A stretch of DNA of 64,000 bases. Origin: a virus. Position numbers and translations under genes: made by a program. The number at the start of each line of letters is the position of its first letter. Positions within the stretch are counted from its first letter, which is position 1. Below, piece by piece: positions 9,662 to 52,339 of the stretch. Where the stretch lies: positions 1 through 64,000 of the IMG/VR virus record IMGVR_UViG_3300010430_000022; one strand, given 5' to 3'. The notes below the pieces were generated by a model, which was given only the letters and a program-made list of their open reading frames with translations, ran no database searches and was not told the origin of the DNA.

Positions 9662-9669
9662 GAGGACTG

Positions 9670-11193
9670 ATGGCTATCTCACCACTCATGGCATGGCGTG
9701 CAGGCTACAGCGGATCCGTACAGGCGTTGCGTGTGCTGAATGGCACCACGTTGGAGACTACCCAGCTTGGAGCAGCTACCGGATTCACAGCCTCCGGTTG
9801 GGATACTGCTATCGCCGGATGCCCTAGGCACAATCGGATCGTCGAGTTTCGGGGCGACCTCTACGCTTACCACTCAGGGGGCGGACCAGCGATCTACAAG
9901 TTCGTGTTCGGCTCCAAAACGTGGTCGTCGGTGGATACGCTTCCGAACCCGCCGAACGCTGCCGATGACAACACGATCAGTGGTTTCGAAGTCATTGACG
10001 TCAATGGCGAGGCCAGGCTCTATCTCTTCTATCGCACGTCACTCAGCACGAACGCCCGTGTTCGCTGGTCCAACGACGGTACTACGTGGAACAGTGGGGC
10101 GACAACCGCAACCACGCCTAACTTTTATCGGACCTTGGTGTATCAAAAGAAGGTCTACGTCTTCGCCGGACCAAACGCGAATCCGGTGCTCTCCTACGAT
10201 CCGGCAGCAGATACATGGACTTCGGTGCCGGTGGTCGGAACGTCACTCGGACGACCAGCCCAAGTTCTCATCAACTTCAAAGGCAGACTCTTGCTGATCG
10301 GGGCCCAGAACGGTACTTGGGCTAGCATCATGACCTTCAAAGAGTTGGTTGGTGGTGGGTTCAACGACGTGTCCTACAGCGGAGGATCTGACCCTGGAGA
10401 CATGGTCACGGTGCGGGCGGCTGCCAATGGAACCCTTGCTGTGTTCGAGGAGAATGACAAGCTCTACGTCCTCTTCAATGAGAAGGCGGTAGACAACGCC
10501 AGCGTTGCAGCCGGACAGGTTCGCGTCTCAGAGTTCGTTCCGAACGGGGCAGCCGTGGGATCGTCTTGGCAAGAGAACGATCTTACCGCCACTGTGGTGC
10601 CCGCCGCATGGCGAACCGGCGGCGCGTTCGCAAACCTGTTCAGTCCGTACGCGGCCTTCAATGGCTACGTGGAGACGAGCACTCCAGGTGCGCCCGAGTT
10701 CTATGCTTGGCGCCACCACACCGTTAACGCAGTCGCGACGTCCACCTTCTGGACGTGGAACGGCAACGCCGCGCTTATGACAGTCGTCAATAGCGATGTG
10801 ACGTCCGAGGTTCAGATTGCGAGCGGGCCAAACACCACGGGTGAGCACATCTACACCGAAGGCGACTTCGACGTCACGCTAGAGAACGCAGCCGTTGAGC
10901 CTGGAAAGGTTCTCTTCGACTTTCAGGCGCACTCTCCGCTCGACGCCAGTTCGCCAACGAACAAGCAGGGCCGGCTCTACTACTCAATCGGTGGCTCGGA
11001 CTGGGCCGTGGCTACGCTGAGCACGGATGCGCCTACTGTCGTATCTGGCGGGGACGCTGCTCCGACGATCAGCGCCAACCTGCTTCAGGGAATCGTAGTT
11101 GGCTCCTCGAAGTTCCGCGCGACCTGGGACGCCATTGCTGACGGCTTCACGGACGCGGGCGAGCAGGTCGAACTCATGCTGAACGTCTTCTAG
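9670..11193 (+). CDS. Virion beta-rich protein, family A #6
   Basis: 507 aa; IVEFRGDLYAY, WTWNGNAALMT, WDAIADG. Confidence 0.7.
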   Translation: MAISPLMAWRAGYSGSVQALRVLNGTTLETTQLGAATGFTASGWDTAIAGCPRHNRIVEFRGDLYAYHSGGGPAIYKFVFGSKTWSSVDTLPNPPNAADDNTISGFEVIDVNGEARLYLFYRTSLSTNARVRWSNDGTTWNSGATTATTPNFYRTLVYQKKVYVFAGPNANPVLSYDPAADTWTSVPVVGTSLGRPAQVLINFKGRLLLIGAQNGTWASIMTFKELVGGGFNDVSYSGGSDPGDMVTVRAAANGTLAVFEENDKLYVLFNEKAVDNASVAAGQVRVSEFVPNGAAVGSSWQENDLTATVVPAAWRTGGAFANLFSPYAAFNGYVETSTPGAPEFYAWRHHTVNAVATSTFWTWNGNAALMTVVNSDVTSEVQIASGPNTTGEHIYTEGDFDVTLENAAVEPGKVLFDFQAHSPLDASSPTNKQGRLYYSIGGSDWAVATLSTDAPTVVSGGDAAPTISANLLQGIVVGSSKFRATWDAIADGFTDAGEQVELMLNVF

Positions 11194-30782: not shown

Positions 30783-32654
30783 ATGACGACCAACACAATG
30801 AGCCCACAGGTAGAGCAGCGTTTCCGTGCAAACGCCAGCGCTACCCGTCGGCCTCTGGTCGACAACATGTTGGTGGAGTCTGAGGGCTTCACCAAGATGA
30901 CCGTCCTGGCCGAAGACTCTCAGAGCAAGGGCGCTCTGATTGTCGAAGGTCTGGTCGGTATCTGTGGAAAGGCGACGAAGAATCGTCGTCTCTACACAGA
31001 GTCGATCATGAAGCGAGAGATCAAGCGTCTTCAGGAACGGATCGATTCTCGGTCCCTCCTGGCTGCTGTGGATCACCCCACAGACGGCAAGTCGCGTATC
31101 CGTGAGGCTGGCGCCATCTGCGTTGGTCTCCGGTGCGAGGCCGACGGTCGGATCATCGGCAAGTACGAAATCGTCGAAGACTCGACCGGTGGTAAGGATC
31201 TCGCCGCATTCCTGCGTGCAGGTGCCTCCATTGGTATGTCCTCCCGTGGCCTGGGTTCGACCTCGGTCAACATGGAAGGCGTCCACGTTGTTGGCGAGGA
31301 CTTCAAGCTCCACGGCTTCGACTTCGTCGCTGATCCCGCTTGCGAGACGGCCTATCCCACACTGGTGTCTGAGGACGTCGACGCGGCACAGGTCGACGAG
31401 AACCAGCTTCGCGCAACCTTCGGCAACCTTGTCGAGCAGATCGAAGATCGCGCTCGCCAGGCTGGTGCCGAGATCGCTGAAGAAGAGGTTCGGGCTCAGG
31501 TCGAAGAGGAGTTCAAGTCGGCACTCGATGAGGCCGGTGGCAAGCTCCGTGAAGACATCAAGCTCCAGGTGGAGTCCGAGATCCGCGAACAGCTTCGCGA
31601 AGACTTCTCGGTCAAGCTCCTAAAGGCCCTCCAAGAGCAGCGGACTCAGATCGAGTCTGTTGTGCGCTCAGAGCTTCTCTCCGACCCCAAGGTCGGTGCC
31701 GCCAAGCGCTTCATGGAAGACCTCGCTCAGAAGCTCGTGCCCTTCGCACCGGCGCCCGACCAGCAAGTCGTCATGGACGATTACGAGGCCAAGCTGGCTT
31801 CGCTGCGTGAGGACGTCGAGAAGAACGAGGCTGCGGTCGGCGCCAAGGACAGCGTCATCAACGAGATGGCCGAGCGCGTTGAGGTCGCCGAACAGGCCGC
31901 TCGCTCGCTGGGCTACAAGCTCTACATCGAGCGCTGCCTTGAGGGTCGCGAGAACGCTGCTCACCTCCGTGAGATGATCGGCACCCCTGACGGCAGCGAG
32001 AGCGCCGACGATCTCCGTGATCGCGTCAGCGCAGTTCTGAACCAGGTCTCCGAGGCAGAGGATCAGGCCCAAGCGCAAGCTCAGTCCAAGATCAAGCTCA
32101 AGGAGCACAAGGCCGATCTGGCCCGCAGGAAGGCAGAGGTCGCAACCGAAGACTTCGACCGTTTCCGCTCTGAGATGGAAGGACGCTTCGAACGTCTCTC
32201 CACTCGCATGGGATCGCAAATCCGCGAGAAGGATCGTGCGCTCTCCGAGGCTCTCGGCCATATCGAGAACCTAGAGAGCACAGTGGGCCAGTCCCGTCGT
32301 CAGCTTCAAGAAGCTGACCTTCGCGCATACGCGGCCCGACGCGTTATCGGCCACCCCCGCGCAAACGACATTCTCTCCCTCGTTGAGAGTGGACGAGTGA
32401 CCTCGAAGGACCAAGTCCAGCAACTTGCCGAGCAGTGGGACAACACTGCAAGCGAGCCTGGCGGGGTCAGTGAGCGCATTCGTCGTTCACTTGGGCGAGG
32501 CCGTGAGGCCCCCACTGAGGACGACCAACAGCGGTTTACTCAACTAATGGAAGACCAGCAGACCATTCCCGGTCTTGAGGGCTTCGACACCACCATGGGA
32601 GAACTCCGCGCGCTGTCGGGGATCGATCATGACTCTTTCAATGGCAGATTCTAA
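30783..32654 (+). CDS. gp21: T4 gp21-like prohead protease fused to a coiled-coil scaffold
   Basis: NRRLY, VDHP (His), GMSSRGLGS (Ser), FDFVADPA; ~430 aa helical extension. Confidence 0.92.
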   Translation: MTTNTMSPQVEQRFRANASATRRPLVDNMLVESEGFTKMTVLAEDSQSKGALIVEGLVGICGKATKNRRLYTESIMKREIKRLQERIDSRSLLAAVDHPTDGKSRIREAGAICVGLRCEADGRIIGKYEIVEDSTGGKDLAAFLRAGASIGMSSRGLGSTSVNMEGVHVVGEDFKLHGFDFVADPACETAYPTLVSEDVDAAQVDENQLRATFGNLVEQIEDRARQAGAEIAEEEVRAQVEEEFKSALDEAGGKLREDIKLQVESEIREQLREDFSVKLLKALQEQRTQIESVVRSELLSDPKVGAAKRFMEDLAQKLVPFAPAPDQQVVMDDYEAKLASLREDVEKNEAAVGAKDSVINEMAERVEVAEQAARSLGYKLYIERCLEGRENAAHLREMIGTPDGSESADDLRDRVSAVLNQVSEAEDQAQAQAQSKIKLKEHKADLARRKAEVATEDFDRFRSEMEGRFERLSTRMGSQIREKDRALSEALGHIENLESTVGQSRRQLQEADLRAYAARRVIGHPRANDILSLVESGRVTSKDQVQQLAEQWDNTASEPGGVSERIRRSLGRGREAPTEDDQQRFTQLMEDQQTIPGLEGFDTTMGELRALSGIDHDSFNGRF

Positions 32655-32666
32655 GGAGGGACACCC

Positions 32667-34112
32667 ATGTTCCAGGCACGTTCAATGATTGCCGAGAGTG
32701 CAGAAGGGTGCGCCCTCGCCGATCACGGTATGGTTCGACAGTACGTCAACAAGTGGGCTCCCCTGCTTGAAGGCATCGAGTCCGAACTCGACAAGTTCAC
32801 CCCTCGTGGGCAGGCCCAGTATGTGAAGTCCGTCGCGGCCTTCATGCTGGAGAACCAGGCTCGACACCTCAAGCGGCTCTCTGAGGAGACTCGGGCGCTG
32901 TCGGTCGGCCCGTTCTTGAAGTTCGTCTTTCCCGTCATCCGACGCGCCGCCGTGCGGTTGGTTGCGACGCAGATTGCGTCCGTCCAGCCCATGACCGGTC
33001 CCATCGGTGGCGTGGCCTTCTACAGGCCACGTTATGCGACGGACAAGGGTCAGGTCGTCGCCGGCCAGGAGATGAACAAGACGTTCAACAAGTGGTACTC
33101 GTCGAACTTCATCGACGGCGAAGGCATTGGCACCGGCAACGGCACCAACACCGTCTTCTCCTCGAACCTGAAGTTCCCTCGGGTTCTCTCCGGCACCCTC
33201 CGGGTCCTGGTTCGCACGGCTGGCACGACCCAGACGGGCACCCTGGTCGGAACTGACAACGGCGCTGGCGGTCTGACCGCTGTTGCTGGCGGGCCTCTCG
33301 CTGGCGGCACGATCAACTACCAGGCTGGTCAGCTTCAGGTCAACTTCGCCGCCGCTCCGGCGACGACCGACGAAGTGCTCATTGAGTACAAGTACGACAA
33401 CGAACTGAACCCCCGGATCCCCGAAGTCCAGTTGGACATCGCGATCCAGGAGATCCGTGCGGAGTCGCGCAAGCTCAAGAGCCTGGCGTCCGTCGAGGCT
33501 GCGGACGACCTCCGCGCCCTCTGGGGACGTGACATCGACGCCGACCTCGTTGCTCACATGAGTGACGAAATGACGGCGGAGATCGACCGCGAGATCGCCG
33601 GCACGGCGCTGAACGCAGTCGAGGGTCTGGCCATGCTGGACTGGGACCGTGCGACTCCTTCGGGCGTCTCCGATCCTGAGCACCTCCAGTCGCTCGTGAT
33701 CCGCATGTCCGAGGCGAGCCACATCGTTCACCGTCGCACCCAGCGTGCGCCGACGAACTGGTGCATCACCTCGTCCGAGGTCGCTGCCCTCCTGGAGACC
33801 ATGCCCGGATTCGCTTCCGTGGACGATGGTCACGTCTACCAGGGAGGCATCATGAAGGGAGGTGTCCTCAACAGGAAGTGGGTTATCTACGTTGATCCCC
33901 TCTTCCCGCAGGACGAGATCCTCATGGGTTACCAGGGTCCTTCGATCCTGGACACCGGCATGATCTACTCGCCCTACGTGCCGATGGAGATCACGCCTAA
34001 CTTCGTTGACCCCAACGACTTCAGCCTCCGTCGCGCGATCCGCACGCGTCACAAGATCACCCTGATCCGGCCGGAGTTCTTCTCGAAGGTCAAGATCTCG
34101 AACCTCAACTAG
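32667..34112 (+). CDS. gp23: T4 gp23-like major capsid protein
   Basis: SVQPMTGPIG, AESRKLK, EIDREI, YSPYVP, DPNDFS..RAIRTR motifs; Gly/Thr-rich insertion domain; strong RBS. Confidence 0.95.
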   Translation: MFQARSMIAESAEGCALADHGMVRQYVNKWAPLLEGIESELDKFTPRGQAQYVKSVAAFMLENQARHLKRLSEETRALSVGPFLKFVFPVIRRAAVRLVATQIASVQPMTGPIGGVAFYRPRYATDKGQVVAGQEMNKTFNKWYSSNFIDGEGIGTGNGTNTVFSSNLKFPRVLSGTLRVLVRTAGTTQTGTLVGTDNGAGGLTAVAGGPLAGGTINYQAGQLQVNFAAAPATTDEVLIEYKYDNELNPRIPEVQLDIAIQEIRAESRKLKSLASVEAADDLRALWGRDIDADLVAHMSDEMTAEIDREIAGTALNAVEGLAMLDWDRATPSGVSDPEHLQSLVIRMSEASHIVHRRTQRAPTNWCITSSEVAALLETMPGFASVDDGHVYQGGIMKGGVLNRKWVIYVDPLFPQDEILMGYQGPSILDTGMIYSPYVPMEITPNFVDPNDFSLRRAIRTRHKITLIRPEFFSKVKISNLN

Positions 34113-39164: not shown

Positions 39165-39998
39165 GTGACAATGGCGACTGAGTTTCAAACGTGGAAGAAG
39201 GCTGTAGAGATCCCTACGGATCGTCTCGTCTTCACTGACTGGAACTGTAACGAGATGAGCCAGGAGAAGCTGGCTCATCTCCAAGCAGAGATCGAGAACG
39301 ATGAGGATCCAGAGGATCCTCATTTCGACGAGCCACTTCAGGTGATTCCGATTGCGGAGTCCGAAGGAAAGTTCCTCGTCGTAGGTGGTGAGCACCGCAC
39401 CAAGATCGCTCGCTCGCTAGAGATGCCAGCAGTCCCATGCGTGATCCGCAACGATCTGTCGAAGATGTCCAGGAAGGATCTGATCCTCTGGTCGGTTCGT
39501 CGCAACAACCTTCGTGGTCGAATCAACGCAACCAAGTATGCCGAGATGGAAGCCGAACTGGTTAACCACCACGGCATGACCTCTGAGGCAGCGCGGCGGT
39601 CCATGCTGATCGACGGTGACCTGGCCAAGGCGCTTCGGGCGACTCTGGCAGTCCGGGCGAACGAGAACAACGAGTCAGACGATGGGCACGACGGTAAGCG
39701 CCAGTTCGGCGACGACGTGGCAGACGCTCGTGAGGATCGACGCTCCAAGGAGGAGCTTCTCTCGGCGCTCAAGATGGCCGAGCAGGACGTGCTCCTCGAC
39801 TCTGCCGATACCGTCAAGCATGGCTACCTGTTCTTCGCTCAGGGCAAGAACGGTCAGATGCATCTGGTCGTCGACGAATCCCTGGAGCTACACGCACTCA
39901 TCAAGCAGATGGTTTCCACCTGCAAAGGCAATGACGCGAAGGTCGACGACTTCTTGACCAACGCGATTAGCGCTCAACTGACCTCGGAGACAAAGTGA
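39165..39998 (+). CDS. ParB/Srx N-terminal domain protein
   Basis: WNCNEM, PLQV, VVGGEHR, VPCVI motifs. Confidence 0.8.
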   Translation: MTMATEFQTWKKAVEIPTDRLVFTDWNCNEMSQEKLAHLQAEIENDEDPEDPHFDEPLQVIPIAESEGKFLVVGGEHRTKIARSLEMPAVPCVIRNDLSKMSRKDLILWSVRRNNLRGRINATKYAEMEAELVNHHGMTSEAARRSMLIDGDLAKALRATLAVRANENNESDDGHDGKRQFGDDVADAREDRRSKEELLSALKMAEQDVLLDSADTVKHGYLFFAQGKNGQMHLVVDESLELHALIKQMVSTCKGNDAKVDDFLTNAISAQLTSETK

Positions 39999-42900
39999 TG
40001 CAGGCACAGATGAACAGAACCCGTGCTACTCACAGCCGCCCCTCGATGAACATGTGGGAGTGGTTCGACATGTGGGCCCTCTATGAGGAGGTCACGCGTC
40101 GCTTCGGTTCGAGGAACCTGTTCGAGGATGAGGACGAGGAGGATTACTCGGACGAGGAGAAAGCGAAGCATCACGACTTCTACGTGAAGCACTTCAATGA
40201 GGTGCTCCACAACCACAACAGGATGTCTGCCAAGGACAGCAAGGATCGCTTGGCGCAGGTTGGTCAGTGGGCGTCGGAGCCATCGTCGAAGGTCGACATC
40301 AGGGCCGGACTGCGTCCACGACAAGGACGAACCGAGCGGGGCAGGGTCGTCCCTGTGGGCAAGGACCCAGTAACCAAGAAGAAGCAATTCGTGAGCAGCG
40401 AAGCACCTGGCTTCGGCGAGAAGGCTCGCGACTTTCGTAAGCGTCGGAGCGAGTGGCACAAGGGTCTTCGCGCTGATGGTCACGATCTGAAGTCTGCTCA
40501 CTCGGCCGCCCAGATCGTGACCGCAGTGAGCGGTAGTAAGCACGGTCACATTCTGCTCAGGGCCGCGAAGTCTCTCGCAGGCGACCCGCACAAGTCACCT
40601 GAGCGTCACAGAGGCATTTCGAGCACGACGGCTAAGAGCGTGCCTGGTGGTGGCAAGACCTCGCCTGATGAAGATAAGCACTTCATCGGTGCCACGCTGA
40701 TGACGCGCCACGGAGAAGCGCAGTCGGCGCACACCAACGAAGAGACCAAGCGGCTCCACGCTCGGCTCAAGGCACGTCGCGATCACGCTGCTTCGAAGGT
40801 CGAACCACTGGAGCCACGCGGAGAGGAAGAAAGCGAAGAAGCCTGGGGGAAGCGTGCTAGCGCCCACGACTCCAAGGTCAATAAGGCTGAAAGTGATATC
40901 GAATCAAACGATAAGCACGGCTATGCCTCTATCTCGACCGATACGAATCACACAGAAGACCAGGTGAAGGCGCACCGCCAGCGCATCTACGGTAAGCGCG
41001 CTGGAGCACACCTCTCGCCGATTCGCGACCTGGCTAGACAGGCTATGGCTCACATCGAGCCTAAGAAGGACAAGGACGGGAACATCACTGGCCCCGGCGG
41101 CAAGCTGAGTCATGAGTGGGTTGCACGAGCAGCGAAGCAACTTGCGATTCAGCGTCGTAGCTCTCACGAGACAAGCAAGAAGGCGGACTCTTTCAGGAAG
41201 GCCGTCGACACCGGTCATCGTTTGGGCGGAGATGACGAAGACCAGGCGAAGGGGATGGCAGGGATCTCTCAGTCCTCCGGCAAGCTTGCCACTCGCGTGA
41301 AGACAGGTGAAACGGTCAATCCCAAGTGGCACCACCCTGCCTCAAAACGAGCCAAGGATACTGGCATCACCATGCGGGGGCGCGATGGTAGCCCGAGTGC
41401 CGAAGCGCACGAAGCAGCTAACAAGGCTCTAGGAGTAACAAGAAAGAGAGCAAGCATCGATATTGGAACGGCGATCAAGACGCTTACCGACAAGGGCCAC
41501 GACCCCAAGTCGATTGCCCGGTTGCTCCAACACCCACACGGACAAGTGATGCGGAGGCTGGCCGGCTTCTCACCTACTGGTGCCGAGAGAGGCGGCGGCG
41601 CGTCAGGCAAACGTGCTGGTGCGCGAGAGAAGCGCGATCAACAACCCGTCAAGTCTGCGATGCGCGCAGAGCGCGAGGCCAAGATCGCCAAGGGCAAGTC
41701 TCCTACTGAGGCCGTCAAGGCCGACCTTCACCGTCTCTATCCGAAGCGAGACGAGGTTGGAGAGGGGCAAGACGACGAGAATCCGACAGGATCCTTCGCA
41801 GGCCGCATCCACAAGATGTATCACGGCGAAAAGGACGCAAAGGGAAACTGGATCTCCCAGCCGATGCCTCACAAGAAGGATGTGCAGGCCGATGAGGAGC
41901 AGCCAGACAAGCTAGGCGTACGCATTACACCTGGCACGGCACGCGCTGGCTTCACCGCTGGCAGAAACATTTCAGGTGCGAGTCCTCTCGAACACCCTGG
42001 CAAGTTCGACGAAGAGGCCGCTCACAAGCAGCACGACGGAGACGAGAAGAAGATCGAGCACGCTCGTCGATCTCACGAGACGCGCCTGGACCGTTTCCAC
42101 GACAGGATGGCAGACAACCACGACGGTGTTCACAAGGCCATGGATAAGATCCTCGCGAACGTGAAGGATCGAAACCACCACCTGACTGTTCAGCATCGTG
42201 AACATCACGACGCACTCAAGCTCGCCAAAAACACAAACAACGAAAGGGATGTAGAGGAGCTAACGGCTCATGGCAAGAAGATGAACATCATGGATGACAT
42301 CATCGATCACCACATGAACCACGCTCAGCACGATCCTGACGTGAAGAAGGCTTTGGGCGGCTCTCTCGCTCGTGTTCGCTCAGGACTCACCAACATCCAG
42401 GCTCGTCTGCGAAAGCATGGTGAGCACTCTATGGCGGCTCGAATCCTTCGTGGGGGCGCATCGCAGAAGGCTCGTGGTGGTGAAGAGCGCGGTAAAGGTC
42501 GCCCAGGTGACCCACTTTCGCGTCAGCGCGTTCGCGTTCCCGGCAGCGAGTCTGGTGCCGGTGGTGACATCGAGTCTCCAACAAAGCACAAGCCTGAGCA
42601 GTACATCGAGCCGACTACACAAACCAGAAAGGTCAAAATGCGCACAGCGCGCGGCGAGCCTGCTGGTACCGCAAACAGGCCCGTGCCTTCCGTGGCGACG
42701 CGAATCCTCGACAAGAGAGCGCAGGCCGCTCGCACCGCCAGCGCTATGGCGAAGCATGCTGCGTCGAAGGCTGCTAAGGAAGCCGCGAAGAGTCGTGAGG
42801 ACGCCCAGGAGCGGGCAACTATGCAGCGACCTGGTGGCGCAGGTGGCCCAATTGGACCAAAGCCGATTCCTGGCGCCGATAAAGAGGCGGAGAGGCGACG

Positions 42901-43414
42901 AGCGCGCGGCGACGCTGCTATGGCGGCCAAGAAGTCTCTCGCTGATAAGGTTGCTGCTGCACCGTCTTCGAAGACGGGCAAAGTGGGAACACCAGAGACA
43001 AGCTCAACGAGTCCTGCAACCCAGGCTCGATACCGCACCTACCCTTCAAAGTCGACCCCAACAAGTCGCGCTCAGATCACACCAACAACCAGTGATTCAC
43101 CTCGGATTCAGGCGCCCTCCAGGCCGGAACCCGGAACACCAGGTGGTCGTAGGCCCGAGGGCGAGAAGAAGCTGGTTCGCGCCCGCCCAACGGGCAGAAA
43201 GGGCGAGTTCTACGTACAGCCCGCCTCGTCGCCGCGCAGCGCGCCTGGGCGTCTCGCTCGAAGGAAGAAAAAGAAGGAGAAGACTGAGGGAGAGAAGAAG
43301 ATGGACGCGCTCTTCAGGAAGCCTGACAACAGGGAAGAGTCTCTCTTCGTTCGTACGCGCCTCGTTATCAACGAGTCATCGTCGCTCCTCAATCGGACCC
43401 CTCTCTCCGTTTAG
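39995..43414 (+). CDS. Large basic His/Lys/Arg-rich putative internal head/ejection protein
   Basis: 1139 aa, low hydrophobicity; acidic N-terminal segment after NLFE; C-terminus SLFVRTRLVINESSSLLNRTPLSV. Confidence 0.65.
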   Translation: MMQAQMNRTRATHSRPSMNMWEWFDMWALYEEVTRRFGSRNLFEDEDEEDYSDEEKAKHHDFYVKHFNEVLHNHNRMSAKDSKDRLAQVGQWASEPSSKVDIRAGLRPRQGRTERGRVVPVGKDPVTKKKQFVSSEAPGFGEKARDFRKRRSEWHKGLRADGHDLKSAHSAAQIVTAVSGSKHGHILLRAAKSLAGDPHKSPERHRGISSTTAKSVPGGGKTSPDEDKHFIGATLMTRHGEAQSAHTNEETKRLHARLKARRDHAASKVEPLEPRGEEESEEAWGKRASAHDSKVNKAESDIESNDKHGYASISTDTNHTEDQVKAHRQRIYGKRAGAHLSPIRDLARQAMAHIEPKKDKDGNITGPGGKLSHEWVARAAKQLAIQRRSSHETSKKADSFRKAVDTGHRLGGDDEDQAKGMAGISQSSGKLATRVKTGETVNPKWHHPASKRAKDTGITMRGRDGSPSAEAHEAANKALGVTRKRASIDIGTAIKTLTDKGHDPKSIARLLQHPHGQVMRRLAGFSPTGAERGGGASGKRAGAREKRDQQPVKSAMRAEREAKIAKGKSPTEAVKADLHRLYPKRDEVGEGQDDENPTGSFAGRIHKMYHGEKDAKGNWISQPMPHKKDVQADEEQPDKLGVRITPGTARAGFTAGRNISGASPLEHPGKFDEEAAHKQHDGDEKKIEHARRSHETRLDRFHDRMADNHDGVHKAMDKILANVKDRNHHLTVQHREHHDALKLAKNTNNERDVEELTAHGKKMNIMDDIIDHHMNHAQHDPDVKKALGGSLARVRSGLTNIQARLRKHGEHSMAARILRGGASQKARGGEERGKGRPGDPLSRQRVRVPGSESGAGGDIESPTKHKPEQYIEPTTQTRKVKMRTARGEPAGTANRPVPSVATRILDKRAQAARTASAMAKHAASKAAKEAAKSREDAQERATMQRPGGAGGPIGPKPIPGADKEAERRRARGDAAMAAKKSLADKVAAAPSSKTGKVGTPETSSTSPATQARYRTYPSKSTPTSRAQITPTTSDSPRIQAPSRPEPGTPGGRRPEGEKKLVRARPTGRKGEFYVQPASSPRSAPGRLARRKKKKEKTEGEKKMDALFRKPDNREESLFVRTRLVINESSSLLNRTPLSV

Positions 43415-43423
43415 GAGCGAACT

Positions 43424-43801
43424 ATGGGCTATCTGACCGATAACATTCCGCTTGGAGAGAACTCTGCGTTCTGCCAAGACCTGTATGTCTATCGGATCAT
43501 CGTTCAGCCTGGCTCACTCTCTGACTCTGCGCTTTCATCCATCGTCAAAGACGAGATTCCTGACGTTGAGGAATGGCAATACTCTGGGCGACGTCGTTGT
43601 CCAATTGTTCCCAACCGAGGCAAGGCTAAGGGTATCCGGCGGGTGATCCATCCGGCTGGTTACGCACAGAACTCGCGCCGTGTTCGACCTTTCACTGAAG
43701 AGGTGACATACGCATTTCACACGAACGACCAGCGAAGTCAGATCGCTGCTCGTTTCGACGTGGAGCGCATCAGCTATAGGCTCGAAGATGAGCCGTCCTA
43801 A
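43424..43801 (+). CDS. Hypothetical protein
   Basis: AGGAG RBS, 125 aa. Confidence 0.55.
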   Translation: MGYLTDNIPLGENSAFCQDLYVYRIIVQPGSLSDSALSSIVKDEIPDVEEWQYSGRRRCPIVPNRGKAKGIRRVIHPAGYAQNSRRVRPFTEEVTYAFHTNDQRSQIAARFDVERISYRLEDEPS

Positions 43802-43890: not shown

Positions 43891-46473
43891 ATGGCGCAGG
43901 GATTCGACGAAATTCTCGGCCTTTACCAGGCATCCGTGAGGAAGAGCCCTGCCTTGATGATGGAGACGATCAACGTCGATTCCAATCGTGGTGTCACATC
44001 GCGCGGCAACTCTCCATACGACAAGTATGCGTCCCCTGCGACTCGGGCTAAAGTCCTTGAGTCTCGGATGCAGGAGATCGAGGCTTTTGCGCGCAGCCGC
44101 AGTCTCTCTGCGTCAGCTATCTACGCTCTTGCGGAAGCCGCGATGCGCACTGGAAAGATCCCTGATCTCGGTCAGTTCGGTCTGGCTGGTGACGACGCGG
44201 TCGCAACCAAGCAGTTCCTCATCTCCAACGTCCTGAACATCGCTGGTCTGGAATGGACTGACTACAAGGGCGATCCGGTTGTCGAGGACGACGAAGAGCC
44301 TGAGCACCACGGCGCGCACGTCGTGGGCGATGAGCCGATGCGCATAGCCCAGGAGCAGGAGCCTCCTAAGAAGCGTCGGCGCCCGAAGACTACTGCTGGC
44401 GGCTACCAGATGGCCGACACAAGCAATGATCCTGCACGATTCATGGCTGAGGGCGCCGAGGGTATGCAGTCCAGTGGACAGAAGCTCGGCTCCCACTGGG
44501 CGAAGCACACTCCAAATCGCGTCGGATCAGCAGGCGCCAAGCGTGAGCGCCGGGCTGCCCACAAGGCAGGACGTCGTGCCGGGCAGGCTGACGCCGAGCA
44601 GGGCATGTCTGACTACGAGCAGGATAAGGAGGAGCGCGAGGAGCATCTTGAAGTCGATCCGACTCGCTTCATGGCTGAGGCTCCCGAGGACTACTGGCAG
44701 CGCTCTCGCACAGATCGCAAGAAGTCACAGGCCAACTACGACGAGCGCGTGAAGCGCCGCGCTTCTCAGTTGGGGGGCACCGGCGAAACCGGCTCTCCTG
44801 AGGTTCAGGAACAGAAGGCCAAGTCGAGGGCTGCTACCGCTGCGCGCGAAGCTGCGAAGGCTGCAAAGGCGAAGAAGTTCGGTATCGACCGGAAGCCCAA
44901 GATGGATAGCGTCGAATTCGATCCCATGACCTTCATGGGTGAGGGTGTGAAGCCAAAGCCGCAGGCCGGCTTCACCGAGAAGCAGGTCCGCAAGTTCACC
45001 GGCAGGAACCGCAAGGGTGCGCGCCGTCGCGAAGTTGGCGATGGTTACGGCCGATACGGTCGCCCGGTTGCTGGTGGCGGTCGCGGAAAGAAGGGCGTCC
45101 AAGGTGGCTGGGGACCAACCGACGAGCGGAAGGAGCCTCAAGACGTTGACGTTCAGGCTGACTCTGTTTTTGTCGATCCCTCCCGCTTCATGGCTGAAGG
45201 AGATGATCCCTACGACCGAATCGTGACCGCTGCTGGACATAGACGGCGGCCACACGAGCTTCAAGGCGAGGAGTTGAAGCGCGCCAAGGCAGAGAGTCAG
45301 CGTCGTCGTGAGTCTCCCGAACGTCGGGAGCAGGTGAAGCAGTGGAAGAAGTCTCGTAAGGATCGAGAGTCCCGCAAGGCGGCACGAGCAAAGGAAATGG
45401 GCGTCGAGCGCAAGCCGCAGATGAACAGTCTTGAGTTCGATCCCTTTCAGTTCATGGCTGAGGAGAAGGACACTGTCGGTGGACCTTCGAACGCGACCCT
45501 CTCGCCCAACCGCATGTCCGATGGTGGCGACACGCCCCACAAGCTCCAGGACTACGAGCGGAATGACCTTCTCTCGAAAGAGGTCATGGCGAAGCTGAGG
45601 AAGATTGCCGGAGACGGCGTCTACGGCTACTCCCGTGAGGATCTCTTCCGGCTCGCCCGCGAGCGCGGTCTGCTCGGGACCGAGGAGGCTGTCGAAGAGG
45701 CCGCCCATCTTGGTGCTGCCGGAAACGACCGTAGCGCCGGCAGCGCTGGTCTCGGCAACTACCCCGGCCCCACCACAGTTCCCTGGGAAGAGGACGAGAA
45801 GGAGAAGCGACGTCGGAAGCAGGAAGAAGACGCTCGTTCTGAGGTCGACAAAATCCTTGGGATTGAGCAAGGTGATCCGCGTGGCGACTCCTGGCCCAAG
45901 CTTGGTGGCGAGATGGCTCGCCTCATGGGTGTTCAGGAAAGCGTAGGCACTCCGGTCCATACCTACATGACCCAAGAGGAGGTTGCGGCCGAGGAGAAGG
46001 CTCTTCGCGAGCGTTCTGAGACCGACAAGATCCTTGGGATCATGCCTGGTGACCCCCGTGGCGACGCCTGGCCCAAGCTCGGCGGTGAGATGGCGCGTCT
46101 CATGAATCTGGAGGATCAAGGCGTTTTCCGGGCCCCGCGTGGCATCAACATGGACGAGCCGGCCGAAGATCAGATCGACGAGATGACCACTTCGGGCGGT
46201 CTAGGTGGCTTCATTGGTGGAGGCATGATGGGCGGCGGCATGATGGGCCGCACCTGCGCTATGCCCTCCTACGACGCGTCCTATCAGCTTCCGGAGGATC
46301 CGGACGAGCGCGTCAAGGCCCTCAACAAGCTGCTCAACAAGGGCAAGAAGAAGGGCAAGAAGGTTCAGGAGAGCGAGGAGATCTACGAGCCGGCACCGAA
46401 CTCAACTGAGGTCCCGACTGTTCGTGACGAAGCCTACGACGCTCATCCTTCGCGCTTCATGAAGCGCCGCTAG
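43891..46473 (+). CDS. Putative head polyprotein with periodic DPxxFM[AG]E motifs
   Basis: Five DPxxFM[AG]E motifs at 76-88 aa spacing; duplicated DKILGI..GDPRGD.WPKLGGEMARLM. Confidence 0.7.
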   Translation: MAQGFDEILGLYQASVRKSPALMMETINVDSNRGVTSRGNSPYDKYASPATRAKVLESRMQEIEAFARSRSLSASAIYALAEAAMRTGKIPDLGQFGLAGDDAVATKQFLISNVLNIAGLEWTDYKGDPVVEDDEEPEHHGAHVVGDEPMRIAQEQEPPKKRRRPKTTAGGYQMADTSNDPARFMAEGAEGMQSSGQKLGSHWAKHTPNRVGSAGAKRERRAAHKAGRRAGQADAEQGMSDYEQDKEEREEHLEVDPTRFMAEAPEDYWQRSRTDRKKSQANYDERVKRRASQLGGTGETGSPEVQEQKAKSRAATAAREAAKAAKAKKFGIDRKPKMDSVEFDPMTFMGEGVKPKPQAGFTEKQVRKFTGRNRKGARRREVGDGYGRYGRPVAGGGRGKKGVQGGWGPTDERKEPQDVDVQADSVFVDPSRFMAEGDDPYDRIVTAAGHRRRPHELQGEELKRAKAESQRRRESPERREQVKQWKKSRKDRESRKAARAKEMGVERKPQMNSLEFDPFQFMAEEKDTVGGPSNATLSPNRMSDGGDTPHKLQDYERNDLLSKEVMAKLRKIAGDGVYGYSREDLFRLARERGLLGTEEAVEEAAHLGAAGNDRSAGSAGLGNYPGPTTVPWEEDEKEKRRRKQEEDARSEVDKILGIEQGDPRGDSWPKLGGEMARLMGVQESVGTPVHTYMTQEEVAAEEKALRERSETDKILGIMPGDPRGDAWPKLGGEMARLMNLEDQGVFRAPRGINMDEPAEDQIDEMTTSGGLGGFIGGGMMGGGMMGRTCAMPSYDASYQLPEDPDERVKALNKLLNKGKKKGKKVQESEEIYEPAPNSTEVPTVRDEAYDAHPSRFMKRR

Positions 46474-46481
46474 AGGTCTAC

Positions 46482-46766
46482 GTGACGCTCGAACGCACCA
46501 ACCTCATCATGGAGACCGGCCCCTACGGGGGCGGGGGCGGTGGTCGTTCGGCTGGTGGATTCGCTACGCCTGTTTCGGGCCGGCGGTTCAATACCTGGCC
46601 GTTCGTCCCCAACGCTAAGCTTCTGATGCAGAAGGATCAGGAGGCTCAGCGCCGCCGCGAACGTCTTCGCGAATTGGCGTTAGGATGGTTCATGCACGGT
46701 GGCATGGGGACCGCCGGCTCGACGAACGGTGCGTCTAGTGGCTCAGCCCCAGGATCAATCTTCTAG
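46482..46766 (+). CDS. Small protein with ERTNLIME leader
   Basis: MTLERTNLIME variant of the shared leader; GAGG RBS. Confidence 0.6.
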   Translation: MTLERTNLIMETGPYGGGGGGRSAGGFATPVSGRRFNTWPFVPNAKLLMQKDQEAQRRRERLRELALGWFMHGGMGTAGSTNGASSGSAPGSIF

Positions 46767-47041: not shown

Positions 47042-47593
47042 GTGGCCAAAAACATGGCTGATCTAGGGTGCAAGTCGACTATCTACATCACACCACCGAA
47101 GATTGCGGACCCGGTACGGTCCTACTTTGCTTCGGGTGTGATTCCGCTCGATCCGGCGACGGAACCGAACAACCCGTTGAAGGCAACGAACTTCTGCACG
47201 GGCCCTGGCTCGAATGGTGGCTCTCTTGGAGATGGGCTTACCGTCTCTTGGTCAGACCACGGTGGCGTCTTCGTCAATCCTCCCTACGGCAAAGGCATGA
47301 AGGATTGGTGCGCCAAGATCCACGAGGAGACGGTCGCCGGAACTGAGATTCTGGCCCTCCTTCCCTGCGGTGCTCGGTTCGCCACCAAGTATTGGCAAGA
47401 CCACATCTTCAATTCCGGACTGGACGTCACACTGTTCGTGCGTGGACGGGTACAGTTCCTTCGTCCGGACGGCTCGGGGACGCAGGGCTCAAACCCCTAC
47501 GACTCGCAACTGCTTGGGTTCAATGTGGACATCGACAAGTTCGTCAAGTGCTTCGGCCACCTTGGGTCGGTCGTGAAGATGGAAGTTGCATGA
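47042..47593 (+). CDS. Phage DNA N6-adenine methyltransferase (Dam-like family)
   Basis: TP..I, LDPAT, DGL..SW, VFVNPPYG, RGRVQF. Confidence 0.85.
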   Translation: MAKNMADLGCKSTIYITPPKIADPVRSYFASGVIPLDPATEPNNPLKATNFCTGPGSNGGSLGDGLTVSWSDHGGVFVNPPYGKGMKDWCAKIHEETVAGTEILALLPCGARFATKYWQDHIFNSGLDVTLFVRGRVQFLRPDGSGTQGSNPYDSQLLGFNVDIDKFVKCFGHLGSVVKMEVA

Positions 47594-48702: not shown

Positions 48703-49563
48703 ATGTTTGATCGCTTCACCGACCGCGCACGCAAGGTCATGGGCTTGGCTCGTACCGAGGCTCAGACGTTCAACCACCAGTACATCGGGACCGAGCACAT
48801 CCTGCTTGGTCTGATCGAAGAGGGCTCTGGGATCGCTGCCAACGTGCTTCGCAATCTCGATGTCGGGTCGCTGGTAGTGCGTCACGAAGTCGAGAAGATG
48901 CTCCAGGATGGCCCGACCATGGTCACTATGGGTCAGCTTCCGTTCACTCCGCGTGCAAAGCGACTGCTGGAGCTAGCTGGCGGTGCAGCGAACGAAATGC
49001 ACCACGGCTACATCGGCACTGAGCACCTTCTCCTAGGAGTCCTTCTCGAAGACGAAGGCACAGCCGCTAAGGCGCTGAAGAACCTCGGGCTGAACTCGGA
49101 CAACGTTCGCGCCGAGGTCATGGAGTTGCTCGGCCCCCTGGCAAACAGGCCCATTACGGAGGCGACGACTAACGATGTAGGGTTCGACGACTACCAAGCG
49201 TTCACGCGCACGACCGCCGTCTACCCCGGCTGCGACGAGCAGGGCTTCCACAGCGCCTCTTACTGCACCTTCGGCCTTACCGGCGAGGCCGGCGAGGTCG
49301 CCGAGAAGATGAAGAAGCGCTACCGCCTGGGCGGCCCCAATGCTTTCCTTCCCGGCTCGGTTGTGGACTACAAGGGCAACCCTGAGACCTACGAGGAGTT
49401 CGTGGAGGGCGTTAAGAAGGAACTCGGAGACGTGCTTTGGTACGTCGCGGGCCTCGCTGCTGAACTCGGAATCTCGCTCTCTGACGTTGCTGACGCCAAC
49501 ATCGTGAAGCTCTCGTCGCGCAAAGAACGCGGTGTGCTCAAGGGCAAGGGCGACGATAGGTAA
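48703..49563 (+). CDS. Fusion of ClpC-type N-terminal (Clp_N) domain and MazG-like nucleotide pyrophosphohydrolase
   Basis: MFDRFTDRARKV...YIGTEHILLGL...PFTPRAK...YIGTEHLLLG, then FDDYQ...GLTGEAGEVAEKMKK...KELGDVLWY...NIVKL..R. Confidence 0.9.
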   Translation: MFDRFTDRARKVMGLARTEAQTFNHQYIGTEHILLGLIEEGSGIAANVLRNLDVGSLVVRHEVEKMLQDGPTMVTMGQLPFTPRAKRLLELAGGAANEMHHGYIGTEHLLLGVLLEDEGTAAKALKNLGLNSDNVRAEVMELLGPLANRPITEATTNDVGFDDYQAFTRTTAVYPGCDEQGFHSASYCTFGLTGEAGEVAEKMKKRYRLGGPNAFLPGSVVDYKGNPETYEEFVEGVKKELGDVLWYVAGLAAELGISLSDVADANIVKLSSRKERGVLKGKGDDR

Positions 49564-49894: not shown

Positions 49895-52339
49895 GTGGCA
49901 GGCTCCGCTACCCGCTCGGCATCTGACGATCTTTCCAAGTCCATTGCGTTCTTCAGTGGCGCTGAGATGCCTGCTCGGGTGTGGAATCGAAAGTACCGGT
50001 TGCGCGACAAGGTCGACAACTACCTGGAGGAGTCGCCCCTTCAGACCTTCTGCCGCATGGCCGACGCCGTTCACGCCCCGACCGACTCGTCGATGCGGCA
50101 GAACCTCGTCGAGAGGCGCTTCATTCCCGCCGGCCGGATCCTCTTCGCCCTCGGAAACCCCTACTTCAGCGCAACCCTAAAGAACTGCTATGTACTGGGC
50201 CTGGAGGGAGACTCGTTGGAGTCAATCTCCGAGCTTCGTGGGCAGATGGCACGCACTTACGCCATGGGCGGGGGTGTCGGGATCGATCTCTCGGCTCTGC
50301 GTCCTGCTGGCGCTCCTGTGAAGAACTGCGCAATCACGTCCTCGGGCGCTGCGAGCTTCGCTGACGGCTTCTCGCACCTGACAGGTGAGATTGGTCAGAA
50401 TGGTCGTCGCGGCGCGCTCATGATCTCTCTGAGCGTCGACCACCCCGACATTCAGCGCTTCGTGCAGGCCAAGAACGACTTCAACCACGACCTCGCGACC
50501 AAGATCCGTGAGAAGCTCCCCCGCAAGCTATACAAGCAACTGAACGAAGAGGTCATCGAGCCTCGTCGTGCGTGCGGTAACGCCAACATGAGCGTTCGCA
50601 TCACCGACCGCTTCATGAAGGCTGTGAAGGACGGCAAGCACCACATCACGCGCTTCATCATGGACGACGGGCAGGAGATCACCGAGGTCTTCGACGCCAA
50701 GAAGCTGTTCCGTGACATCGTAATGGGTGCTTGGAGCCACGGCTGCCCTGGCTGCCTGTTCTGGGACACCATGGCGCGCGAGGACAACCGCAATTACCTC
50801 GCACCTAGGTGGCACATTGTTACCACCAACCCATGCGGAGAGCAGCCTCTCAGCGATGGCGGGTCGTGCAACCTCGGAGCGGTCAATCTCGCTCGGTTCA
50901 CCAAGCACCCTTACACAGACCGTGCTGAGTTCGACTGGGATGGCTTCAAGCAAGCGATCCGTGACGGTGTTTGCTTCCTCGATGAGGTCAACACTATCGA
51001 ACTCGAAGAAAACCGCGCTCCGATCTCGAAGCAGGCCGAGGTCACCGAAGGTCTGCGCCAGGTCGGGCTGGGTGTCATGGGCTATGGCGATCTGTTGCTT
51101 CAGCACCAGATCAAGTACGGCTCGGACGAGGCGCTGGCCTTCACCGACAAGCTGTTCCGCTGCCTCCGCGACACGGCCTATCACGAATCGATCATGCTCG
51201 CGAAGGAGAAGGGTCCGTTCCCTGCCTTCAACTGGGAGCAGATCAAGCGCTCGCCGTTCATCGACCGTCTGCCTGGTGAACTGAAGAAGCTGATGGCGAA
51301 GCACGGTCTTCGCAACAGCAACGTCCTGAGCATCGCACCCACTGGCACTATCGCCATCATGGGTGAGACCACTGGTGGGATCGAGCCGGAGTTCGCTTAC
51401 CAACTTACCCGTGCGGCTCAACTCGGTACCGGCAAGCGGACCAAGTTCACCTTCCTCACGCCTACCGCACAGCGGATCGCCAAGGCGCTCGGTAAGAGCG
51501 TGCCTCAGGGTGAGATCGAAGGCGCGGTCGACATGTCGTGGCTGCCCGAGTGGGCCGTGGCTAGTCACCAGATCGATCCCAAGCGTCGAGTTCTGGTGCA
51601 AGGCACCATTCAGCAGTACATCGACACGGCGATCTCGTCGACGGTGAACCTGCCGGAGACGGCCACAGTCGAGGACGTGATGGACATCTACTGGACTGCT
51701 TACGAGGCAGGCTGCAAGGGTGTCACCGTCTACCGTGAAGGGTCGCGTGAGGGCATTCTTCAGACGCTCCAAGAAGCAGAGCGCCTTGAGTATCCCATCG
51801 AGCCTCCGCTCCAGATCAAGTCCAAGCGGCTGTCGTTCAAGGGGCAGAACGGACTTCAGCGCATCCTCATCAACGTAGGCGACTACCGTCCTGGTGTGCC
51901 ATGCGAGGTCTCGGTCATCCACGGCAAGTCCGGAACTGAGGTCGCGTCCTACGCGTCTGCACTCGGGATCGTCATCTCCATCGCTCTCCAGAACGGCGTC
52001 CACCCGATCAAGCTCGCTCGGGCGATGGAAGGCATCAGCGCTGGCTGGGCAACACGTCTTCCTCTTGACGGCAAGGGCAACAAGCCCACGACCGTTCAGA
52101 GCGTGCCCGACAGCGTGGCTGCCGCGCTGCGGAAGTTCTACGGCAACGGGATCTACGAGAAGGGCCTCGCCGGCAAGCCGATCAACGGCGAGACCAACAA
52201 GACCGGCTGGGAACTCACGGCTGAGGAGCGCAACCGGGCTCAGAACTGCCCGAAGTGCGGCAAGCAGACCTACATTCCAGACTCCTCATGCTGGAAGTGC
52301 ATCAATCCGGCCTGCGACGTCGATGGGATCTGTGGCTAA
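49895..52339 (+). CDS. nrdJ: Ribonucleotide reductase, class II (adenosylcobalamin-dependent) type
   Basis: PAGRIL, NCYV, GGGVGID, TNPCGEQPL, SIAPTGT, KGVTVYR; TSCPD-like domain and C-terminal Cys cluster; no beta-subunit gene adjacent. Confidence 0.88.
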   Translation: MAGSATRSASDDLSKSIAFFSGAEMPARVWNRKYRLRDKVDNYLEESPLQTFCRMADAVHAPTDSSMRQNLVERRFIPAGRILFALGNPYFSATLKNCYVLGLEGDSLESISELRGQMARTYAMGGGVGIDLSALRPAGAPVKNCAITSSGAASFADGFSHLTGEIGQNGRRGALMISLSVDHPDIQRFVQAKNDFNHDLATKIREKLPRKLYKQLNEEVIEPRRACGNANMSVRITDRFMKAVKDGKHHITRFIMDDGQEITEVFDAKKLFRDIVMGAWSHGCPGCLFWDTMAREDNRNYLAPRWHIVTTNPCGEQPLSDGGSCNLGAVNLARFTKHPYTDRAEFDWDGFKQAIRDGVCFLDEVNTIELEENRAPISKQAEVTEGLRQVGLGVMGYGDLLLQHQIKYGSDEALAFTDKLFRCLRDTAYHESIMLAKEKGPFPAFNWEQIKRSPFIDRLPGELKKLMAKHGLRNSNVLSIAPTGTIAIMGETTGGIEPEFAYQLTRAAQLGTGKRTKFTFLTPTAQRIAKALGKSVPQGEIEGAVDMSWLPEWAVASHQIDPKRRVLVQGTIQQYIDTAISSTVNLPETATVEDVMDIYWTAYEAGCKGVTVYREGSREGILQTLQEAERLEYPIEPPLQIKSKRLSFKGQNGLQRILINVGDYRPGVPCEVSVIHGKSGTEVASYASALGIVISIALQNGVHPIKLARAMEGISAGWATRLPLDGKGNKPTTVQSVPDSVAAALRKFYGNGIYEKGLAGKPINGETNKTGWELTAEERNRAQNCPKCGKQTYIPDSSCWKCINPACDVDGICG

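Follow-up and report, generated by a model that had tools for sequence, protein, structure and literature searches.

A modular phage protein with a repeated DPxxFM[AG]E motif and its possible processing by a T4-type prohead protease

P0001 is an 860-residue protein, mostly disordered by prediction, encoded within a 64,000-nucleotide stretch of viral DNA (the window), the first 64 kb of the 74.5-kb IMG/VR record IMGVR_UViG_3300010430_000022, and it carries five internal copies of a DPxxFM[AG]E motif. The reading that we favour, tentatively, is that P0001 is a modular protein of the head interior, cut during capsid maturation by the phage's own T4 gp21-type (S77) prohead protease; we infer its presence in the capsid, its cleavage, and the fate and role of the pieces. 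The preliminary description of this DNA had proposed a prohormone-like precursor cut after M-x-E, a proposal that now has partial and circumstantial support from an S77 protease gene, a set of leader peptides, disordered linkers and the turnover of modules among relatives. An uncleaved multivalent docking protein is a serious rival that explains most of the same facts, the main exception being the behaviour of the Glu.

The gene and its motif copies, whose coordinates and spacings (76, 88, 85 and 88 residues) agree exactly with the preliminary description, are as follows.

43891–46473, plus strand: whole gene P0001, 860 residues, ATG start; member of a phage protein family seen in metagenomes only
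44428–44451, plus strand: motif 1, DPARFMAE, residues 180–187, in a linker with predicted local distance difference test (pLDDT) below 50
44656–44679, plus strand: motif 2, DPTRFMAE, from residue 256
44920–44943, plus strand: motif 3, DPMTFMGE, from residue 344
45175–45198, plus strand: motif 4, DPSRFMAE, from residue 429
45439–45462, plus strand: motif 5, DPFQFMAE, from residue 517
46444–46470, plus strand: C-terminal copy, HPSRFMKRR, residues 852–860, lacking the Glu; the C-terminus of most family members

Six-frame translation of the window, and likewise of the whole record, confines DPxxFM to the P0001 open reading frame (ORF), and FMxE occurs outside it only twice, in the major capsid protein (residues 59–62) and in the CCA-adding enzyme. 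The full motif is found in no other ORF of the 74-kb genome, nor in those of L002, a close relative, or L003, and the idea that other head proteins share it is thereby rejected. Five copies in 860 residues compare with an expectation far below one, by our own rough estimate from typical residue frequencies. Across 74 instances in 25 family members the consensus is [DS]-[VY]-x-[VFI]-D-P-S-R-[FY]-M-A-E-[EG]; the core is that of the preliminary description, while the conserved stretch proves longer: it spans about 12 residues, and positions −3 and −1 relative to the Asp are hydrophobic. The best-conserved dipeptide of the motif is Asp-Pro (or His-Pro, Asn-Pro), and the terminal form reads Y-D-x-H-P-S-R-[FW]-M-K(RR). 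Family members hold between 0 and 5 internal copies by the strict pattern. Of 54 internal D-P copies, about 50 have a Glu directly after M-x, and in P0012 and P0007, where the usual terminal copy has sequence after it, that copy reads HPSRFMDEG and HPSRIMGEA, with x-E regained.

At the DNA level the motif copies share GATCC...TTCATGG, with GATC in all five copies of the window. Synonymous sites of the motif vary, however, and L002 and L003 use GAC as well as GAT for the Asp; the constraint therefore acts on the protein and not on the DNA, and we reject the idea of a DNA-level signal such as a GATC Dam site or a recombination site. Internal translation starts at the motif ATG are likewise rejected, there being no Shine–Dalgarno-like sequence in the aligned upstream bases and the constraint lying at the protein level.

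The proposed processing enzyme is encoded immediately ahead of the major capsid protein.

30783–32654, plus strand: prohead protease (Peptidase S77, T4 gp21 type), 623 residues; phrog_207, with PF03420 in homologues
32667–34112, plus strand: major capsid protein (T4 gp23-like), starting MFQARSMIAE, with FMLE at residues 59–62

The protease joins an S77 domain, in which D97-H98 and S153/S154 are invariant, to a helical, Glu-rich, scaffold-like coiled-coil extension of about 400 residues, a fused form of about 600 residues that is common in metagenomes. Its homologues P0098, P0166, P0180, P0181 and P0186 also match PF05204, PF05203 and PF14528, which we take to be intein or homing-endonuclease domains. 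The FMLE of the capsid protein (window position 32841) has the same F-M-x-E core as the repeated motif and lies where a gp23-like propeptide boundary could be; it may simply align with a conserved '..FENQ' stretch of the T4 gp23 propeptide, and we give it little weight.

T4 gp21 cuts after the Glu of L/I-x-E, cleaves core proteins into several fragments and removes 10-residue capsid-targeting sequences from internal proteins (PMC9026906), and the related enzyme gp245 of SPN3US cuts after A-x-E, with multiple cuts inside long propeptides (PMC10052503). We searched the 74-kb genome for comparable leaders, using the pattern [RKQH][TS]x(0,1)-hydrophobic-hydrophobic-x-E on all open frames 60 codons long or longer. 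Ten of the 20 matches begin 3–6 residues after a start codon, and these fit M-x(1-5)-[RQH]-[TS]-x(0,1)-L-[LIV]-x-E, like the T4 capsid-targeting sequences.

24471: leader MTLRRRSLLIFE
24907: leader MDLERTPLLLE
25143: leader MIRQTLLVE
32679: leader MFQARSMIAE, on the major capsid protein
35069: leader MYQAHTLLILE, on the CCA-adding enzyme
46494: leader (V/M)TLERTNLIME, on the ORF directly after P0001
60430, minus strand: leader MNLRRTPLLIE
61386, minus strand: leader MLTRTPLLCE
62735: leader MLERTPLLLE
68366 (genome coordinate): leader MALYTAQTLLVLE

Looser versions occur on a gene between the portal and protease genes (MMLPATGPTTSLME) and on two others. L002 retains the leaders, and related phages have versions of their own (..RRPLLTLE in L010, MSLYDRV(T)LAE in L011). 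Their presence on ORFs that include the CCA-adding enzyme suggests that many enzymes may be packaged in the capsid.

P0001 itself begins with a segment of this kind, followed by its first conserved domain.

43891–43965, plus strand: N-terminal 25 residues ending RKSPALMME, a candidate propeptide or targeting leader with a hydrophobic-x-E site
43966–44295, plus strand: helical N-domain, residues 26–135, folded core about residues 45–117 (pLDDT 73, five helices)

The segment resembles the RTPLLxE leaders of about 10 residues and is longer, and its L22, M23 and E25 are invariant in the family alignment. The site just before the N-domain is hydrophobic-x-E in most of 65 superfamily members, although its letters vary: in the closer family it reads LMME, LMNE, GLNE, RIDE or FMTE (P0039 and P0041 have S-F-M-T-E), and in the wide family L-[AHVSG]-E before [DN]SPLE. 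The sequence that precedes it ranges from about 15 to about 580 residues. LMME and F-M-[AG]-E alike place Glu at P1 and Met at P3; gp21-type sites have a small or hydrophobic residue at P3 (L/I in T4, A/S in giant phages), with which Met would be compatible. This hydrophobic-x-E before the N-domain, together with the leader-bearing neighbours, points to prohead processing and counts against a protein that is never cut.

Structure prediction places the repeated motifs in flexible sequence. An AlphaFold2 monomer model built from a 25-sequence alignment has a mean pLDDT of 56 and a predicted template modelling score (pTM) of 0.24, with confident regions at the N-domain (residues 45–117), helices 214–250, 267–293, 303–329 and 456–502, the middle domain (555–595) and short helices in the C-terminal third; the ESM Atlas model has a pLDDT of 0.43. 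All five motifs, and module 3, fall below pLDDT 50, the motifs lying in linkers between helical segments, so that on this model they could be reached by a protease. The preliminary description had named a folded repeat domain as the arrangement that would speak against a processed precursor; the model shows no repeated fold, and because the motifs all sit in low-confidence linkers we conclude that they form no such domain.

Cutting the family members at their motifs and comparing the pieces, alongside the family alignment, resolves the region between motifs 1 and 5 into four modules, each closed by the motif that follows it.

44452–44679, plus strand: module 1, residues 188–263, isoelectric point (pI) 6.5, long helix 214–250, closed by motif 2; orthologue of the first module in most homologues
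44680–44943, plus strand: module 2, residues 264–351, pI 9.8, helices 267–293 and 303–329, closed by motif 3; paralogue of module 4
44944–45198, plus strand: module 3, residues 352–436, pI 10.3, Gly/Arg-rich and predicted disordered, closed by motif 4
45199–45462, plus strand: module 4, residues 437–524, pI 10.1, helices at 456–502, closed by motif 5

The segments had been described as mostly dissimilar and Arg/Lys-rich. Residues 264–351 and 437–524 are in fact paralogous (39% identity over 76 residues, E 1e-14), and three of the four inter-motif modules are basic, whereas module 1 (pI 6.5) and the protein as a whole (pI 7.0) are not. Every module has a basic core and an acidic stretch at its end, before the motif, and the flanking parts (N-terminal, middle and C-terminal) are acidic as well as conserved; to speak of a 'library of basic peptides' accordingly overstates the case. 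What resembles module 3 in P0010 and P0011 is their first module, hence a position that varies from phage to phage; several relatives hold module types that are missing here (GSGGRxSL..AAKKAHD and GSTKAGGYPF..HYQGHS), and P0004 (539 residues) passes from the N-domain through a single motif to the middle domain with no extra module. Judged by these sequence comparisons, the modules are discrete, individually conserved units that have been gained, lost, duplicated and reordered among relatives; a comparison of homologues for gain, loss or shuffling had been suggested. The idea of a 'variable-spacer' array is overstated too, since the module types are conserved between phages and not hypervariable. 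Among 1.84 billion representatives we found no stand-alone module genes, the short matches being fragment-like N-, middle or C-terminal parts.

Beyond motif 5 lie the remaining conserved elements of the protein.

45553–45687, plus strand: conserved helical middle domain, residues 555–599, ...DLLxKxVMxKL...GDGVYGYSREDLFRLARERGLLGTEE (pLDDT about 88)
45835–45938, plus strand: RSExDKILGIxxGDPRGDxWPKLGGEMARLM unit, first copy; 1–2 copies in homologues
46012–46115, plus strand: RSExDKILGIxxGDPRGDxWPKLGGEMARLM unit, second copy, 80% identical in DNA to the first
46174–46248, plus strand: I-D-E764 followed by a Gly/Met-rich stretch TTSGGLGGFIGGGMMGGGMMG; a further putative cut site

The duplication of a second unit (about 35 residues) is borne out by these 104-nt copies at 80% identity. 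All 25 members keep Glu764, which in the sequences inspected closes [IVL]-x-E ahead of [MAS]-T. The family layout runs from a very conserved N-terminal part (residues 1–130) through the variable motif-bearing region to the helical middle domain (about residues 555–599), then through a second variable stretch, with an extra small domain HDYQ..HGGKF..TATPKV in some members, to 1–2 RSExDKILGI..GDPRGE.WPKLG units, a Gly/Met-rich stretch and the conserved C-terminus HPSR[FW]MK.

P0001 has 24 metagenomic homologues at E≤1e-3, and a profile search of the 1.84 billion representatives retrieved 85 proteins, 37 of them at E≤1e-30. Links to known families are lacking: P0001 has no Pfam or PHROG family at E≤1, a profile of 10 homologues finds nothing at E≤10 among all PDB sequences, and tblastn against 50,697 phage records, run with the whole protein, its N-domain, its C-terminal region and two members of the wider family, gives no match. 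The ESM Atlas yields no usable feature match, its structural matches all having a template modelling (TM) score below 0.2. Pfam searches with the long homologues give only a weak winged-helix (TrmB-like) match, in P0009, and among 45 members of the wider family the only Pfam or PHROG matches are DUF1391 and phrog_751, five members each and neither of known function. Some 45 further proteins share the N-domain core only, attached to other, mostly basic tails without the DPSRFM motif. Folded alone, the N-domain has no Foldseek match in the PDB at E≤0.001. The top four matches of a wider structural search are all type III secretion gatekeepers (CopN, InvE, MxiC and BopN); we set this fold aside, because Z-scores of 5.3–6.8 are too low to inform on a helical bundle even though the four agree.

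On the favoured reading, the precursor would be taken into the prohead, where the protease would cut after the Glu of hydrophobic-Met-x-Glu, that is, at LMME25, at the five F-M-[AG]-E sites and possibly at I-D-E764. The products would be a short leader, an N-domain piece of about 162 residues, four modules of 76–88 residues and a 336-residue C-terminal piece. Three of the released modules would be basic, and most would be single long helices or Gly/Arg-rich disorder. The extended motif V-x-V-D-P-S-R-F-M, kept in Glu-less form at the C-terminus, probably docks to, or targets the protein to, the prohead core or the protease, and each product would carry the same tail. The basic pieces would remain with the DNA in the capsid, perhaps to be ejected along with it. 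By our reading the motif may do two jobs, docking and then cutting, by analogy with T4, where the targeting sequence adjoins its cut site. A bolder version, which we think rather unlikely, is a cassette array at the protein level: interchangeable modules would each bear the same 12-residue tag, which would dock in the prohead and direct the cut after its Glu, and the capsid would receive a phage-specific mix of peptides with ...DPSRFMAE tails, delivered with the DNA. If so, the gain, loss, duplication and reordering of modules would allow fast change of the injected mix.

Several observations weigh against processing in the prohead. The P3 residue is Met, compared with L/I in T4 and L/I/V in the phage's own leaders. 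Hydrophobic-hydrophobic-x-E occurs 0.39 times per 100 residues across the open frames of the genome, against 0.70 in P0001; the sequence is common genome-wide, and fit to so short a consensus is therefore weak evidence. The whole protein, at pI 7.0, is not basic. Its gene has a ParB-like nuclease, Dam, a deoxynucleoside monophosphate (dNMP) kinase and ribonucleotide reductase (RNR) genes for neighbours and is set apart from the head genes, the capsid gene lying about 10 kb upstream of it, with the same synteny in distant relatives. The Glu is missing from the C-terminal copy and from a few internal variants (FMK.., YMKRR in P0021 and P0022; distant members have, for example, FMKFAKRR and YMKRRPQ), and about 12 positions are conserved, many more than in known gp21-type sites, which need only P3 and P1. 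These last two features suggest a binding role beyond or beside cleavage, and the Glu-less C-terminal copy in particular suggests, from its sequence, that PSRFM serves also, or instead, as a docking element.

Such a role leads to the strongest competing explanation, unlikely on the whole yet to be taken seriously, in which P0001 is an uncleaved multivalent hub that displays a 12-residue docking motif five or six times on a flexible chain and binds several copies of one phage or host partner; it may act in the cytoplasm, with the surrounding replication and nucleotide-metabolism genes, and not in the capsid. The excess of conservation over what a gp21-type site needs, including the alternating hydrophobic V-x-V and the D-P, fits this well, as do the Glu-less copy kept as a conserved C-terminus, the Glu-less variants of P0021 and P0022, the location of the motifs in disordered linkers (the usual place of docking motifs), a copy number that varies among relatives, and the old synteny with nucleotide-metabolism genes. 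Pure docking, however, does not predict a Glu that follows M-x in nearly all internal copies and comes back when a terminal copy becomes internal, and in the AlphaFold2 monomer none of the motifs docks on a domain of P0001 itself.

It is improbable, in our estimate, that P0001 is a disposable scaffold or core protein like T4 gp22, gp67 and gp68, which would build or size the prohead and then be chopped up, its pieces leaving the capsid and its modules not being effectors. T4 core proteins are indeed cut into multiple fragments by gp21 (PMC9026906), modules 1, 2 and 4 are predicted to be long single helices, as is often so in scaffolds, and the protease and leader evidence applies here as it does to the favoured reading. 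Yet the protease gene already has a scaffold-like extension, the stretch from the portal gene to the protease gene has room for two further small genes, the P0001 gene stands outside the head module and evolves much faster than the head genes, and module types that are individually conserved, three of them strongly basic, suggest pieces with roles of their own. The Asp-Pro bond is labile, and some self-processing modules make use of it; Asp-Pro, His-Pro or Asn-Pro is the best-kept dipeptide of the motif; but cleavage without the prohead protease, whether by spontaneous or assisted Asp-Pro scission or by a host or other phage protease, is very improbable, given motifs in disordered sequence with no folded self-processing domain around them, terminal copies that read His-Pro, and no other protease seen near the locus.

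Among known systems, the nearest to P0001 are the T4 internal and core proteins, the multiply cleaved head, ejection and inner-body proteins of giant phages and, in concept, the polyvalent proteins; by sequence it belongs to none of these groups. With the T4 internal proteins (IPI, IPII and IPIII) and Alt it has in common a phage whose capsid protein, portal and S77 protease are of T4 type and many of whose proteins have short N-terminal hydrophobic-x-E leaders, and P0001 is fast-evolving, partly basic and encoded away from the head genes; rapid evolution is known for the T4 internal proteins (PMC9026906). Unlike them it is ten times larger, has Met at P3 and carries its candidate sites internally, in five repeats, inside a 12-residue motif. 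It also shares no sequence similarity with them: homology to IPI, IPII or IPIII was found neither by PHROG or Pfam (E≤1) nor as a tblastn phage match. A gp21-like protease makes several cuts after Glu in large head proteins of phiKZ, 201phi2-1 and SPN3US (gp53/gp54), some of which associate with the DNA and are ejected (PMC10052503, PMC9026906). Their repeated cuts, however, fall in long N-terminal propeptides at minimal A/S/G-x-E sites, with no extended motif, no regular spacing of 76–88 residues, no module shuffling and no homology to P0001. T4 gp22, gp67 and gp68 are likewise helical proteins, cut into multiple fragments by the prohead protease, but they are small and acidic, their genes belong to the head cluster, and most of the pieces leave the head; P0001 lies outside such a cluster and has conserved globular end domains and basic modules. 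Polyvalent proteins (Iyer et al. 2017, PMC5512222) are similar in idea, a single long polypeptide delivered with DNA, processed into units and variable in module content. They differ in being built from successive enzymatic or binding domains that can be recognised as such, with a peptidase (MPTase) embedded among them, whereas P0001 has no recognised (Pfam) domain and would depend for any cutting on the prohead protease acting in trans. Prohormone and neuropeptide precursors and viral polyproteins resemble it only in layout, with repeated processing motifs between modules; proteases, site chemistry and biology differ. What is new here is a regular array of conserved, interchangeable modules, each closed by one extended motif, together with a copy of that motif as the C-terminal tail.

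Should the favoured reading be correct, the T4 scheme, in which a short targeting peptide is combined with a cut after Glu, would be extended from one N-terminal tag to a repeated internal tag, so that one gene gives several packaged products, a compact way for phages to load and vary their capsid cargo; a short, portable target-and-release tag would also be useful for loading proteins into phage capsids. Were the hub correct instead, P0001 would be an unusual multivalent disordered phage protein whose partner is worth finding. P0001 is also a marker for a large clade of uncultured phages that have T4-like capsids. Leaders resembling capsid-targeting sequences seem to be present there on many enzymes and on two very large disordered proteins, so that the injected content of these phages becomes testable.

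The record has an estimated completeness of 26% (CheckV) and a GC content of 58.8%. Besides its T4-type portal (phrog_213), prohead protease (phrog_207) and major capsid protein (phrog_138), the genome has tail-fibre-like genes and many genes of nucleotide metabolism. The major capsid protein is about 33% identical to its best match among the 50,697 phage records, and the phage is therefore distant from all cultured ones. The P0001 ORF is the longest open frame of its region and has a GGGAG ribosome-binding site 8 nt 5' of its ATG. Its nearest neighbours are as follows.

39995–43414, plus strand: P0028, a 1139-residue low-complexity basic protein (pI 10.1), upstream syntenic neighbour, ending ...RTRLVINESSSLLNRTPLSV
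43424–43801, plus strand: 125-residue protein (MGYL[ST]DN...), conserved partner of the N-domain gene across the wider phage clade, by synteny
46482–46766, plus strand: 94-residue Gly-rich downstream protein with the leader (V/M)TLERTNLIME

The same order is found in L002, which has a ParB-like nuclease, a protein of about 1150 residues, a 125-residue protein, the P0001 homologue and a 94-residue protein. Nine more distant IMG/VR contigs still pair the 125-residue gene with an N-domain gene, with a ParB-like nuclease gene upstream of the pair or dNMP kinase and RNR genes downstream. The 125-residue gene stands directly 5' of the N-domain gene here and in most of L006–L014 (around 9100–9950; contigs of up to 275 kb). 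Identity to L002 is 56% for P0001 and 51% for P0028, against 93% for the ParB-like nuclease, 90% for the protease and 98% for the capsid protein; P0001 and P0028 are among the fastest-evolving genes of the region. The C-terminal RTRLVINESSSLLNRTPLSV of P0028 resembles the leader motif, a search of P0028 for internal repeats found none, and it has no family match; related loci have ORFs of 1308–2033 residues in its place.

The window contains GATC 556 times, where about 234 would be expected from base composition, and encodes a Dam-family methyltransferase at 47042–47593. A 286-residue protein at 48703–49563 consists of an N-terminal part and a MazG-like pyrophosphatase; the N-terminal part weakly matches an 'ATP-dependent protease' PHROG (phrog_4871, E 3e-7) and, judged by its first residues, may be a Clp N-domain. 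The RNR large-subunit ORF has 814 residues in the window (49895–52339) and 1188 in L002 (16541–20107), and only residues 290–814 align with L002 in one piece, which suggests, from the sequences compared, an insertion in the L002 gene, possibly an intein.

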